A DNA stretch of 64,000 nucleotides from Rickettsiales bacterium. Lineage in GTDB: Bacteria; Pseudomonadota; Alphaproteobacteria; Rs-D84. Every line of letters begins with the position of its first letter. Within the stretch, counting starts at the first letter, position 1. The notes below the pieces were generated by a model. The model had not been told where the DNA came from. It worked only from the letters and a program-made list of their open reading frames with translations, and searched no databases. Location: the NCBI GenBank assembly GCA_031262525.1, contig JAISHM010000007.1, positions 21,635 through 85,634 of the forward strand. Direction: 5' to 3'. A program made the translations under genes and the position numbers. Below, piece by piece: positions 14,497 to 53,825 of the stretch.

Positions 14497-15047
14497 TTGA
14501 TACCCCTTTGGTTCTCATTGTTATTTTTTTGCGCGACCTCTATCCCAAGTTTGCGTCTTTTTTGATAATCTTTAAGCAAAAATTTGTTAAATTTTATCTG
14601 TTCCCGTTTTAATGGGTTAAATGTATGATTTTTTATTTTAACATTATTTGTTTTTACATTTCTGATATTTATCATGCTATCATTTTTATGCAATTCTTCT
14701 AACTGCGACGGAATAGAATATACACATCCATTATATGGGTTTGTATTTTTCTTTTTTAATTCGTTTGGGGCAAAATTCATAATATCCGATATTTTACGCA
14801 AAAATTCCGCACTGCTGACCCCATGATAATAAATAATACAATTATCATAAATCCCAGAGCGCGTTGAACTGATAGAATAAAAATCATCATTTCCATTTTG
14901 TAATAAACACTCGTAATTTTTATCTTTATATTTTTTTACAAAAACCTCTATCTCTCGGCTTTCATTTTTTGTATCAATCAGTGACGCCAATAAATTTAAA
15001 ACAACATCCGCCGGGATTGGTAAATTGGCCGAAAATATCTTTTTCAT
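14493..15047 (-). CDS. Hypothetical protein (184 aa), orphan, very AT-rich
   Basis: Long ORF with SD-like AAAGAG and its own promoter. I recognised no motif. It is Lys/Asn-rich. Confidence 0.6.
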   Translation of the reverse strand: MKKIFSANLPIPADVVLNLLASLIDTKNESREIEVFVKKYKDKNYECLLQNGNDDFYSISSTRSGIYDNCIIYYHGVSSAEFLRKISDIMNFAPNELKKKNTNPYNGCVYSIPSQLEELHKNDSMINIRNVKTNNVKIKNHTFNPLKREQIKFNKFLLKDYQKRRKLGIEVAQKNNNENQRGIK

Positions 15048-15074
15048 CGCAAAACTCTTTTATGTTTTACAAAA

Positions 15075-15102
15075 ATAATACTATATCAGATGTGTTTGTC
15101 AA
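15075..15102 (-). promoter_or_regulatory. Sigma70-type promoter (TTGACA-16-TATTAT) for the 15047..14245 two-gene module
   Basis: On the minus strand, TTGACA is at 15102-15097 and TATTAT at 15080-15075. It lies immediately after the merR-like stop at 15108. Confidence 0.45.
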
Positions 15103-15107
15103 GGAAT

Positions 15108-15629
15108 TTATTCAGAAAGCAATTCGGCGCGCGCACGGCGCAACATTTCAATTATTTCATTCTGTTTTTGCAACGAATCATCTGTCCCGCATACCGATTC
15201 TATTTTATTTTCGGGTTGCGACGCGTCCATTACATCCGCCATATCATCGGCGCGCATTTGCGTCGCCGCAGAGAACAAATCGCTGGTATTCAGCACACCA
15301 TTTTCATCGGTCATTTTTTCGTATTGTTCGCCACCGCTGACCATATTATTTTTTTGTGGGCCGGGCTGCGCAACCGGCGCTTTATCAACAACAATCTGCA
15401 TTTTCCCCAGCGCGGCGCGCGCACCCGCGATTGTCATACCATCATTATATAACAAATCACGAATTTTCTTGATTATCGCCGCAGTGTCATCGCCGTAATA
15501 GCGTCGCCCGCCTGCCCCAGTCATAGGTTTAATAAAGCGTGGGAATTGCTTTTCCCAATAACGCAGTGTATGCGCCGGAATTCCCAACTCTTTGGATATA
15601 TTTGAAATAAAATGATACGCCTTTACCAT
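15108..15629 (-). CDS. MerR-family transcriptional regulator
   Basis: N-terminal wHTH: YHFISNISKELGIPAHTLRYWEKQFPRFIKPMTGAGGRRYY. Confidence 0.85.
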   Translation of the reverse strand: MVKAYHFISNISKELGIPAHTLRYWEKQFPRFIKPMTGAGGRRYYGDDTAAIIKKIRDLLYNDGMTIAGARAALGKMQIVVDKAPVAQPGPQKNNMVSGGEQYEKMTDENGVLNTSDLFSAATQMRADDMADVMDASQPENKIESVCGTDDSLQKQNEIIEMLRRARAELLSE

Positions 15630-15678
15630 AGTTTTTTATTATACCACAAAAAACCCAAAACACGAAATTATAAATACA

Positions 15679-15707
15679 TTGACAAAGAGAGAGAGAGAGA
15701 GTAAAAT
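15679..15707 (+). promoter_or_regulatory. Sigma70-type promoter TTGACA-17-TAAAAT whose spacer is an (AG)8 dinucleotide repeat
   Basis: TTGACA at 15679-15684, spacer A(AG)8 at 15685-15701 (17 nt), TAAAAT at 15702-15707. Downstream are SD AAGGAG at 15724-15729 and the ATG at 15736. Confidence 0.55.
15686..15701. repeat. (AG)8 simple sequence repeat
   Basis: Eight perfect AG units, read directly from the sequence. Confidence 0.95.
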
Positions 15708-15735
15708 ACAGCTTATAAAAAACAAGGAGTATAAA

Positions 15736-16488
15736 ATGCTAAACAACCTACCAAAAACAAATCCAAGATTAAAAAAATTTATAACAGCCGTCACAAAAAG
15801 AATAAAAAGTCCGCGTGGGCTGGTACTGGCTTTGATTACAACTTATTTAATGGGTATGGGTAATCAAAAAATAATAACAGAACTATCCAATAATAAAAAA
15901 CAGGAAAAAGCAAAAGCAGAAATTGAAAAATTCCTGGACAGCCAACCAAATTACGAAGAAATAATGATTGCAACAGAACAGGCATACGATAAAGAAATAA
16001 AAGATTTAACTGATATATTAGAGGATGACAAATTTTACGAAAACCACCTATTTGAAGTAGCCGAATACGAAGCACTTAAAACAATATGGGACAAATTATC
16101 AGACTCACAAAAACAGAATATATACACAACCATAAAAGATATGAAGCCAGAAATTGACAGGTCTAAAGAACCATTTCGTATGATACAAGATTATTATTAT
16201 TTGTATTATAATAGACAAATAAAGCGAGATAAAATTATCGATATATACGAAAAAACTCCCCCGGTAATATTTAACCAATTCGAATTAGAAACAATTTTTG
16301 GACAAATTGACACCGCGACAAATAGATACAACAACCAGGGTTTATCCAACAAAATCCAAACCAACAAAGCCAAACTGGACTCTTTGCAAACGGCAAAAAC
16401 AGAAGTTTTGAGAAAACTAAAAAAAGAGAACGAGAAACAGAAAAGATTTGCTGATTCTGCTTATGCCGCGAACAAAATAAAGCGATAA
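15736..16488 (+). CDS. Hypothetical Lys/Glu-rich coiled-coil-like protein with one N-terminal TM segment (250 aa)
   Basis: The start was moved from the TTG at 15679 (which is the -35 box) to the ATG at 15736 behind SD AAGGAG. TM segment: GLVLALITTYLMGMG. No motif recognised. Confidence 0.6.
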   Translation: MLNNLPKTNPRLKKFITAVTKRIKSPRGLVLALITTYLMGMGNQKIITELSNNKKQEKAKAEIEKFLDSQPNYEEIMIATEQAYDKEIKDLTDILEDDKFYENHLFEVAEYEALKTIWDKLSDSQKQNIYTTIKDMKPEIDRSKEPFRMIQDYYYLYYNRQIKRDKIIDIYEKTPPVIFNQFELETIFGQIDTATNRYNNQGLSNKIQTNKAKLDSLQTAKTEVLRKLKKENEKQKRFADSAYAANKIKR

Positions 16489-16521
16489 GAATAATAAAAT
16501 ATATCTGCACCAGAAAACAAA

Positions 16522-16553
16522 ACCCGCAGGGTTTAAACCTTGCGGGTGATTTT
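16522..16553. terminator. Hairpin terminator between convergent genes
   Basis: ACCCGCAGGGTTT/AAACCTTGCGGGT imperfect long stem, followed by a weak T-run (GATTTTA). Confidence 0.45.
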
Positions 16554-16607
16554 ATCTTTAACCAAACATTTTATGTCTGGCATATGTCTTTTTTTGTGAG
16601 TTTTGGG

Positions 16608-17069
16608 TTAAATTTGTAAAATCTCTCGACCAATGTGTTCTAATTTTTCTTTTGCTTCATGTAATACATCCGACCATTGTTTATCTGTGGTGTCGCCATT
16701 TTTGCCATCGCTAACAAACTTATAAACACTCAGTGGAATTTTATTTTCACGTGCCACCCATGCAATTGCAAAATCCTCCATTCCAACACAATCCCAAATA
16801 TCACACGCAATATTCCGAACAAAAGTATCACCAGTTCCAGAAATTCCGCGTAGATACCTATTATCAATTTCACCGTATTCAAGAATTGGGTTATCCGATG
16901 TTTGCGGACAAACAAATTTTGGTGCCATAAATTCAGTTGTATTCATATCCCGTTGCACAAACTGATTGATTGATAAAATTGTTCCATAATCATAAACACT
17001 GCTGCCTGCTGTTCCCATATTTACAATTAAATCTGGTTGAAACTTATCAATAACATATTGGGTTGTCAT
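16608..17069 (-). CDS. Nucleoside phosphorylase/nucleosidase (PNP_UDP_1, MtnN-like) superfamily protein; annotated ORF lacks its conserved N-terminus
   Basis: Contains DLIVNMGTAGS, GISGTGDTFV and VGMEDFAIAWVAREN motifs. The same frame stays open upstream to the fic stop (17160) and encodes YVWFIVAVEGEFALESANIAYCGIGKINAA, the expected N-terminal strand plus acidic motif, but with no in-frame canonical start codon. Confidence 0.65.
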   Translation of the reverse strand: MTTQYVIDKFQPDLIVNMGTAGSSVYDYGTILSINQFVQRDMNTTEFMAPKFVCPQTSDNPILEYGEIDNRYLRGISGTGDTFVRNIACDIWDCVGMEDFAIAWVARENKIPLSVYKFVSDGKNGDTTDKQWSDVLHEAKEKLEHIGREILQI

Positions 17070-17159
17070 AGCGGCATTGATTTTTCCAATTCCACAATAT
17101 GCTATATTTGCAGACTCAAGAGCAAATTCACCTTCTACTGCAACAATAAACCAAACATA

Positions 17160-17771
17160 TTATTCATCAATTTTTTCAGTCTTAAATTCATCATACCCTT
17201 CGTAATAATAACTGGTATCAATTCCGTGCATATAAACATTGCGATTATTTATTTCTGATGTAAGCGCACTGCGCAATAATTCTTTAATCTCGGTATCTTT
17301 GACAGGGCTGCGTTCCATCGCAGAAAGGTATTCATCTTTATCAACCCGGTTCCAATAAACAACTTTTTTTAATTCTTTTTTCAGGATTAAATCCAGCCAA
17401 ATTCGCGTCGAGCGACCGTTCCCTTCACGAAAAGGATGTGCAATATTCATTTCCACATATTTTGCAATGATTTCATCAAAATTACTTTGATGCATTTTAT
17501 CAATATGTTTCAATGATTGTTCCAAATACATCAGCGGTGCAAAACGAAAGTCTTTCTTTGCCAGATTCACATCACGAATTTTTCCCGCAAAATCGTAAAT
17601 CTTCCCGAATAATTTTTTATGAATTTTTTTAAGTCCTGCAAAAGTCCCAACTGGAATTTTATCAATCTCACCAGAATCCCAAAGTCCGCGCGCCGCCAAT
17701 TTGCTGATTTTTTCTTCGGCACGATTTAATTCTATTTGATTAGTAATCCCCAGTTTATTTTCCAATACCAT
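17160..17771 (-). CDS. fic: Fic-domain protein, class III (C-terminal auto-inhibitory helix), putative AMP transferase
   Basis: Fic motif [13 protein letters not shown]-terminal inhibitory motif (S/T)xxxE(G/N) present as SYYYEG. About 200 aa, like the single-domain Fic proteins. SD AAGAGG upstream. Confidence 0.85.
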
Positions 17772-17853
17772 ACTTAAAACCTCTTGATTTTATTATAGTA
17801 TAATTTGTTAAAAATACCAGTATTTTTATTATTTCTTGACAAAACATATAAAC

Positions 17854-17889
<36 letters not shown>

Positions 17890-17898
17890 GAGGTTAAA

Positions 17899-18009
17899 AT
17901 GTTTAATTTGTTGATAAATCCGATTCTTTCGTTATTTGCGGCGATATTCGCATACGCTGTATTCACAGAATTTTTGGCGTCTATTGGTGTAATCAAACGC
18001 GGAAAATAA
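17899..18009 (+). CDS. Small hydrophobic peptide (36 aa), function unknown
   Basis: MFNLLINPILSLFAAIFAYAVFTEFLASIGVIKRGK: a single TM segment with a basic C-terminus. A good SD (AAGAGG) lies 6 nt upstream. It is below the ORF-track size cutoff. Confidence 0.45.
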   Translation: MFNLLINPILSLFAAIFAYAVFTEFLASIGVIKRGK

Positions 18010-52871: not shown

Positions 52872-53825
52872 ATGATTATGCGAATGTTCGGCATTGCGGC
52901 CATGTTTTTTTGTTTATTATCACAAACATCTTTTGCAAATGAAGATGCACTGGATTCCGCTTTGCAGAATGCGAGAACCAGTTGCGCGGGTATTTCTGAT
53001 GAATTTGATAAATTAAAAACTTTGGCGGGGATAAATACCGCGATAACGGGCGTTGGGACACTGGCGGGGGGGGGGGCGGTTGCAACAGGATTTGTAAAGC
53101 AGTCGCGGGACGCGCAAATTGCAAAATTGGAAATGGCAAAACTTACCAAAATATCCTATAATAATAATTCTTCCTATAATGCCAGCGCCACTGATGTAAA
53201 ATCTGCAATGAATTCGTATTACGAAAAACATAAAAACGACACCCCCGAACAGATAGAGACCGAAATAGATAAATTGACCAAACAATCCAAAAACTTGGGT
53301 AATTGGCGCACTGGATTACTGGCGGGCAGCACCGCTACAAACATTGCGGGCGCGATTATCGCGGGTAATAATCGTGCGTCCAGTGATTTACACGGCGCGG
53401 TCGCGGATTGTAAATCGTCGGTATCTGCGTTGCGCGGCGCGTATATGCAGGCGAGATTAGATGGCGCAAACACAAAGAAAATTGAACAGGCAATAACAAT
53501 AGTTTCAGAATGCGGTAAATGGGAAAATACCGATATATCAAAAATAGATAATCGCGCGACGGGCGCTATGTGGTCATCGGTGGCTGGCGCAACGCTGGGA
53601 ACCGCGGGAACAATCACCAGCGCATTTGCAAATACCGATAAAACTCGAAACGACGATTCCGACAACGGAAAACAAAAAGAAAAAAATCTGAATACGGCAT
53701 CAAATGTTTTGGCGATTGGAACAACAGCGGCATCGCTGACCGCGACTATATTCAATGCGACACAAATCGCGGCAATTAAAAAGGCGTCTGCTGTGGCGGA
53801 TGAATGTCAAGAGGCATTGCAATGA
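52872..53825 (+). CDS. Secreted Ala/Gly/Thr-rich protein (317 aa), function unknown
   Basis: Signal peptide (FFCLLSQTSFANE). Four ~20-aa G/A/T-rich hydrophobic segments (INTAITGVGTLAGGGAVATGF, LLAGSTATNIAGAIIAGN, SSVAGATLGTAGTITSAFA, VLAIGTTAASLTATIF) and 4 Cys. Confidence 0.6.
   Translation: MIMRMFGIAAMFFCLLSQTSFANEDALDSALQNARTSCAGISDEFDKLKTLAGINTAITGVGTLAGGGAVATGFVKQSRDAQIAKLEMAKLTKISYNNNSSYNASATDVKSAMNSYYEKHKNDTPEQIETEIDKLTKQSKNLGNWRTGLLAGSTATNIAGAIIAGNNRASSDLHGAVADCKSSVSALRGAYMQARLDGANTKKIEQAITIVSECGKWENTDISKIDNRATGAMWSSVAGATLGTAGTITSAFANTDKTRNDDSDNGKQKEKNLNTASNVLAIGTTAASLTATIFNATQIAAIKKASAVADECQEALQ

Follow-up and report, generated by a model that had tools for sequence, protein, structure and literature searches.

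Does a dinucleotide repeat that fills the space between the two hexamers of a promoter switch the gene behind it on and off? The locus that raises this question belongs to an uncultured gut alphaproteobacterium (Rickettsiales bacterium, assembly GCA_031262525.1) and lies in a stretch of 64,000 nucleotides of contig JAISHM010000007.1, hereafter the window, whose positions are used below unless another contig is named. An earlier reading made from the DNA letters alone (the sequence-only reading) had described a TTGACA/TAAAAT promoter separated by A(AG)8 and proposed it as a candidate phase-variation switch. On balance, we favour this interpretation, in the form of a binary promoter-spacing switch that is driven by slippage and currently ON.

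We propose the following mechanism, in which (i) the slippage-prone A(AG)8 takes up the whole -35/-10 spacer of a sigma-70-type promoter, and this promoter would drive one gene with its own terminator, encoding a coiled-coil protein anchored in the membrane; (ii) the assembled allele would represent the ON state, since its eight units give 17 nt, the optimum in this genome; (iii) replication slippage by one AG unit would change the spacer to 19 or 15 nt; (iv) the same one-unit change would also rotate the hexamers by about 70 degrees, and transcription would be strongly reduced; and (v) the change would be heritable and reversible, as in the (TA)n tracts of hifA/hifB or vmm. Within this scenario, we infer use of the promoter, length changes of the tract at a useful rate and a dependence of expression on repeat number.

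The promoter, its gene and the divergent MerR-family neighbour

The features of the locus are listed in Table 1. The arrangement given by the sequence-only reading, with TTGACA, the 17-nt A(AG)8, TAAAAT, AAGGAG and the ATG at 15736, proved correct to the base. The TTGACA/TAAAAT pair matches 11 of the 12 consensus positions and is the top promoter-like site within 14500-17500, and A(AG)8 lies between the -35 and the -10 of the predicted promoter of the 250-aa gene. Taken together, TTGACA-A(AG)8-TAAAAT, the Shine-Dalgarno (SD) sequence, the open reading frame and the terminator would make up a complete one-gene transcription unit.

Table 1. Features of the AG-spacer locus and further promoters with repeats in the spacer (positions refer to the window, or to the contig of the source assembly where one is named)
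Feature	Position	Strand	Remarks
Divergent MerR-family gene	15108-15629	-	core gene, 38/41 relatives
Extended -10 TGGTATAAT, candidate merR promoter	15638-15646	-	8 nt from the MerR ATG; 32 nt from the -35 of the AG promoter
-35 hexamer TTGACA	15679-15684	+	6/6 consensus match
Spacer A(AG)8 = AAGAGAGAGAGAGAGAG, 17 nt	15685-15701	+	pure (AG)8 = 15686-15701
-10 hexamer TAAAAT	15702-15707	+	5/6, A2 and T6 kept
Predicted transcription start	15714-15715	+	inferred from sigma-70 geometry, 7-8 nt past the -10; leader ~21 nt
Shine-Dalgarno AAGGAG	15724-15729	+	6 nt ahead of ATG 15736; 16 nt past the -10
250-aa gene	15736-16488	+	ATG-started ORF
Intrinsic terminator hairpin, 11 bp, 7 GC, then T run	16522-16547	+	would close the one-gene unit
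G10 promoter TTGACA-AATTATGTCG10-TAAAAT, 19 nt	C13:17774-17804		spacer repeat
T13 promoter TTGACT-T12GGAAT-TATTAT, 17 nt	C19:35053-35105	-	spacer repeat
G2AG6 promoter, interrupted tract, 18 nt	C13:14327-14356		spacer repeat

The source assembly (790 kb in 21 contigs, 41% GC, 86% complete) has a clear preference for promoter spacing. Exact TTGACA followed by a -10 with at least 5/6 matches occurs at 23 sites with 16 nt and at 19 sites with 17 nt between the hexamers, compared with 2, 6, 4, 9, 7, 4 and 4 sites at 14, 15, 18, 19, 20, 21 and 22 nt, respectively; many of these sites stand 20-60 nt before an SD sequence and an ATG. Such a sharp preference argues that this organism uses the sigma-70 consensus, and that a spacing of 16-17 nt is optimal. 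The spacing profile was taken in place of a reversed-pattern control, which is unusable for promoter counts in this genome because ACAGTT is itself depleted about 10-fold. The predicted AG-spacer promoter is well supported by the 11/12 match, the SD sequence, the ATG and the terminator, together with the genome-wide peak of TTGACA/TATAAT pairs at 16-17 nt, and the assignment of the AG spacer to a promoter thus stands. As had been calculated from the letters, (AG)7 gives 15 nt and (AG)9 gives 19 nt; given the spacing peak, one AG unit gained or lost would leave the optimum and fall to background level.

Depletion is also seen for other hexamers across the whole genome, where GTTAAC occurs 4 times versus 200 expected, ATTAAT 48 times versus 860 and TTTAAA 166 times versus 2011. 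GTYRAC, CTGCAG, GTATAC, CTGAAG and CTAAAG are depleted as well, so that the affected motifs comprise short palindromes and some asymmetric hexamers, which points to restriction-site avoidance.

The repeat could in principle be coding rather than regulatory. Translation would then start at an in-frame TTG at 15679, within what is read here as the -35, and changes in the AG tract would shift the frame and provide a translational switch. Indeed, no stop codon interrupts this frame between 15679 and the ORF, across the repeat, and the open frame measures 290 aa. We nevertheless regard this explanation as highly improbable. The TTG lacks a ribosome-binding site, but AAGGAG stands at the ideal spacing before the ATG at 15736, with the repeat 35-50 nt upstream of this ATG; homologues align from the ATG-proximal region and carry no extension; and an AG unit would shift the frame by 2 nt, yet the downstream SD sequence and ATG would still initiate.

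The gene behind the promoter (31.9% GC) lies within a low-GC patch and encodes a protein rich in Lys, Ile and Glu, with a single hydrophobic segment at about residues 29-47 that is preceded by eight Lys/Arg residues and resembles an N-terminal signal-anchor. These properties agree with the AT-rich, Lys/Glu-rich protein with one N-terminal transmembrane segment described beforehand. The AlphaFold (AF2) model is all-helical, with long coiled-coil helices (pLDDT 73), and a Foldseek search of this model against the PDB returned generic coiled-coil matches only, none with E < 0.2. By the positive-inside rule, the coiled-coil body should face the periplasm; the product is only a putative surface or effector protein.

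The description of the product as an orphan holds in part. There was no match in a Pfam search, no homologue in 41 close relatives, nothing in a word-indexed set of 5.8 billion proteins and, by a profile scan, no homologue in JGI metagenomes. When 1.8 billion representatives were searched exhaustively with HMMER, in contrast, four or five remote homologues of 234-277 aa with 26-33% identity emerged (including P0002, P0003, P0005 and P0006), as well as a fragment with 51% identity. Common to the protein and its homologues are a hydrophobic anchor at the N-terminus, the motif PRGL and a C-terminal DSxY motif. On the basis of these remote homologues and shared motifs, the gene appears to be real and a member of a very small family, rather than strictly an orphan. 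A profile search of 121 family genomes found a homologue in only one other genome, where it follows lnt and has an ordinary extended -10 promoter without a repeat.

The AG promoter stands back-to-back with the likely promoter of the divergent MerR-family gene. No SD sequence is present in front of the MerR ATG (region 15627-15646, minus strand), and since the extended -10 is moreover so close to the ATG, the merR mRNA is probably leaderless or nearly so. The neighbours of this gene vary among relatives, synteny is not conserved and elsewhere it is unlinked to the 250-aa gene; as a core gene with varying neighbours, it is not a dedicated regulator of the 250-aa gene.

Nonetheless, this setting allows a further explanation, in which the tract acts as an all-purine mirror repeat via H-DNA or via a bound regulator, for example of the MerR family, and the output follows supercoiling or a signal, not repeat number. 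Homopurine-homopyrimidine mirror repeats of about 18 nt, which is close to the length of the tract, can form H-DNA (an intramolecular triplex) under negative supercoiling. The purine run at 15684-15701 (18 nt) has the sequence features of such elements, namely a mirror repeat of about 15 bp or more, and the tract lies between the divergent promoters of the MerR-family and 250-aa genes. However, the intergenic region contains no operator-like dyad and no inverted repeat lies within or overlaps the spacer; MerR-activated promoters have spacers of 19-20 nt and not 17 nt; and the MerR gene is core (38/41), whereas the 250-aa gene is not and is unlinked to it elsewhere. Together with the lack of an Rfam family matching the region, this makes the explanation improbable. 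A MerR-type activated promoter was likewise rejected as a class for this site, given the 17-nt spacer, the pure AG repeat and the missing dyad operator, and so was an RNA element over the region, given the Rfam result.

Repeat-bearing promoter spacers in the genome and its relatives

No other dinucleotide repeat in the 790-kb assembly is as long as (AG)8; the next in length are (CG)7, which lies within a gene (C8:38358), and (CG)6, and a shorter intragenic (AG)5 is located at C5:10833. Under an order-0 model, 6e-4 AG-type tracts of at least 8 units are expected in the assembly. On these grounds, slippage expansion is the only plausible origin of the tract. Its 8 perfect AG units reach the hypermutability cut-off of at least 8 dinucleotide units used by PhasomeIt (PMC5953494). 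The coincidence of the tract with a promoter is no accident. Among 63 simple sequence repeats (SSRs) of the genome, 2 are spanned by a promoter match of at least 11/12, compared with 0.11 expected, and random windows of SSR size are spanned by such a match at 0.18% of positions. With a match of at least 10/12, the number is 3 of 63 versus 0.75 expected; these three, (AG)8, G10 and T13, are all placed correctly upstream of an SD sequence and an ATG.

An origin by slippage would also be compatible with a static promoter, in which the tract expanded once and was then fixed at the length that gives 17 nt; in a cell proficient in mismatch repair, it would now change too rarely to produce ON and OFF subpopulations and would have no role in switching. 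We consider this account possible, although rather doubtful. A perfect 16-nt repeat stays uninterrupted for long only by turnover or selection, and several other long repeats occupy promoter spacers and the 5' coding regions of secreted proteins in the same genome, both of which argue against it. This recurrence of promoter-spacer repeats in one genome is the strongest indirect support for the idea of a switch. The G10, T13 and G2AG6 promoters front the three copies of a genome-specific family of membrane proteins of 205-225 aa. In the G10 copy, a short duplication breaks up the coding region behind codon 36. A shared origin of the AG promoter with the poly-G promoter module was considered and rejected, as the alignment gave no homology beyond the promoter and SD motifs.

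Long repeats are not confined to promoters. The genome contains ten G/C runs of at least 9 nt, compared with about one expected from base composition, and several of them directly follow a signal peptide or lipobox in proteins that are secreted, tail-fibre-like or lipoproteins. An (ATA)10 tract and five heptamer repeats are also present, and by the PhasomeIt cut-offs (PMC5953494) there are about 19 candidate repeat loci in 0.79 Mb. We tentatively suggest, with rather less than even confidence, that the AG tract is one element of a genome-wide phasome of multiple repeat chemistries in an alphaproteobacterium of the gut with a genome of less than 1 Mb. This may take in AG, G and T tracts in promoter spacers, G/C runs after signal peptides and heptamer repeats.

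Individual loci among these repeats can be described as follows. In the window, a G11 run (53066-53076, encoding GGGA) lies at codon 64 of an Ala/Thr/Gly-rich signal-peptide protein of 317 aa (ORF 52872-53825). Further runs occur in a 200-aa repeat protein (G10 behind the signal peptide, C3:7246), a 642-aa tail-fibre-like protein (a C13 run, at C13:1686), a 770-aa protein (G10 at codon 22, C1:65118) and a lipoprotein-like hydrolase (G9, C1:20006). The five genes with these intragenic G/C runs are candidates for translational phase variation. Heptanucleotide repeats of four units each are CTATTCG (C4:73302-73329), TTTGCAC (C13:95-122) and GTAATTG (C18:36103-36130), the first of which lies in the signal-peptide region of a lipoprotein-like ORF of 175 aa, where one unit would shift the frame. 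At 17836-18009 of the window, a TTGACA (17836) and, 16 nt beyond it, an AATAAT that belongs to (ATA)10 (17856-17886) precede the SD sequence AAGAGG and the ATG at 17899 of a hydrophobic 36-aa peptide, MFNLLINPILSLFAAIFAYAVFTEFLASIGVIKRGK, just before rpmH. A change of repeat number in this tract, which is 85 nt upstream of a divergent Fic gene, would move the -10 relative to the SD sequence and leave the spacer as it is.

Repeat-bearing spacers recur in the family. The pattern TTGACA-N4-14-G6+-TANAAT was found at 19 sites in 8 of 151 family genomes and in 7 of 18 genera, and the reversed-pattern control for these poly-G promoters had no hit in the 151 family genomes. Their spacers measure 15, 16, 17, 18 and 19 nt at 7, 2, 2, 5 and 3 sites, respectively, a distribution unlike that of ordinary promoters (Fisher p = 4e-4). 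This spread is what switches caught in different states would look like. Seventeen promoters of the form TTGACAAA-(3-9 nt)-G8-11-TA[AGT]AAT, with spacers of 15-19 nt, lie in the relatives G004, G008, G017, G018, G046, G048 and G049 (loci L015-L033); eight of them belong to G049 alone. The genes behind the poly-G promoters of relatives include prfB (L017), cysS (L033), a radical-SAM enzyme (L031) and several hypothetical proteins. Because housekeeping genes such as prfB and cysS are among them, repeat-bearing spacers in this group are not always contingency loci, which speaks for the static promoter. One relative's poly-G promoter appeared to drive a tRNA, a case that was dismissed because the tRNA-Asp lies on the opposite strand. 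At the end of a G049 contig (L033:2940-2983), a long poly-G run reads through the 3' end of cysS. This run is probably an artefact of two-colour sequencing chemistry, and terminal poly-G in these metagenome-assembled genomes (MAGs) is not to be trusted.

The AG version of the spacer repeat, in contrast to poly-G, is a singular event. Among the 150 other family genomes, and among 400 other genomes of the class (401 scanned including the source, from 308 genera), none has an (AG)n spacer with 5-6 units or more. The design is thus not conserved, and its uniqueness among about 550 class genomes is a further point in favour of a static promoter.

Repeat number and mismatch repair

For the switch that we favour, repeat number should differ between cells of one population or between close strains. 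Exact-protein look-ups with the 250-aa and MerR proteins led to only one other assembly, the Logan contigs of SRR14710920, in which a contig with the same (AG)8 is identical over 2.9 kb (100%) and runs straight through the tract. The MAG and SRR14710920 probably represent one sample or population and are not independent. Scans with variable-gap patterns of GTDB genomes and JGI metagenomes gave no further copy of the AG locus. The comparison of repeat number among strains or bins that had been advised therefore returned 8 units in both assemblies, probably of one sample, and no length variant. From the identical repeat number and the unbroken contig, it follows that one AG allele dominates that sample, as the static promoter would predict. 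Of the original switch interpretation, the part that concerns the promoter is borne out by geometry and spacing optimum, and length polymorphism, its defining property, was not seen in these two assemblies.

The G10 promoter of the same genome may behave differently. The Logan contig with the G10-promoter gene (L039:1-15, SRR14710920_158533; corresponding to C13:17790) ends inside the tract, with G9 followed by TAAAAT. A de Bruijn graph branches where G9 and G10-or-longer alleles coexist. Since the contig ends at G9, where the graph would branch, the G10 tract may be heterogeneous (G9/G10) in the SRR14710920 sample; this is a hint, and the break of the assembly graph at a pure promoter tract weighs against a static promoter. 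The interrupted G2AG6 promoter tract (L041), in contrast, does not break the Logan contigs, nor does the intragenic G11 tract, whose length is unchanged there (L040).

Mismatch repair suppresses dinucleotide slippage. Both mutS and mutL are present with open frames in the source genome, and their integrity is again consistent with a static promoter; they should lower the rate of slippage at the AG tract but not abolish it. In Neisseria, dinucleotide tracts show no variation (PMC5953494), which points in the same direction. Weighing these observations against the recurrence of repeats in promoter spacers and the persistence of a perfect tract, we still lean towards the spacing switch.

Comparison with known promoter-spacing switches

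Repeats in promoter spacers are a textbook mechanism in a handful of pathogens (Haemophilus, Neisseria, Bordetella, mycoplasmas), and the published dinucleotide examples use TA, so that AG is unusual in this role. We found no record of contingency loci in the present lineage. With its placement in order Rs-D84, it is believed to live at the expense of other cells (PMC12306168). If confirmed, the switch would mean that envelope proteins are turned on and off stochastically also in Alphaproteobacteria of the gut that are uncultured and have reduced genomes, in which variable surfaces could aid the attachment to partners or the escape from phages or host immunity. If the tracts vary, stochastic promoter-spacing switches would be a general strategy of an uncultured and probably partner-dependent lineage. 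The AG locus is compact and self-contained, comprising a promoter, one gene and a terminator.

The precedents named by the sequence-only reading, the TA repeat of hif and the homopolymers of porA and opc, are tracts in promoter spacers (PMC3899988; PMC5953494). Closest in design are the fimbrial promoters of hifA/hifB in Haemophilus influenzae, with a (TA)n tract in the -35/-10 spacer (PMC3899988). Both loci have a dinucleotide spacer that changes by 2 bp per unit, both lie between divergent genes and both concern an envelope-associated product, which is predicted in the present case. The unit, however, is AG here and TA there, and the AG tract serves only one of two divergent promoters, as the merR promoter is 32 nt away. 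In addition, the present host, a gut alphaproteobacterium that is uncultured and has a reduced genome, is not a pathogen.

A second relative in design is the vmm gene (Vmm protein) of Mycoplasma mycoides subsp. mycoides, with (TA)n repeats whose switching was measured experimentally (Persson et al. 2002, as cited in PMC2628566). Both hosts have tiny genomes, but the repeats are TA there and AG here, and switching is experimental in the one case and proposed from sequence in the other. To our knowledge, mycoplasmas have no MutS/MutL system, whereas the source genome carries mutS and mutL. In the vlp family of Mycoplasma hyorhinis, each promoter has a poly-A tract (PMC3899988). The membrane-protein family of the source genome resembles it, as each copy has its own spacer repeat (G10, G2AG6 or T13); it differs in that tract chemistry varies between copies, and the 250-aa gene stands outside that family.

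In Neisseria meningitidis, spacer tracts of porA (poly-G) and of opc and fetA (poly-C) tune transcription through spacing (PMC3899988; PMC5953494). The G10 and T13 promoters described here, and the poly-G promoters of the relatives, have exactly the design of porA and opc. One step of such a homopolymer is 1 bp, so that expression is graded, whereas the AG tract steps by 2 bp and should for this reason act more like a binary switch. With what appears to be a real promoter and a plausible contingency switch, the AG locus would join the known class of promoter-spacing switches of the hif, vmm and porA type.
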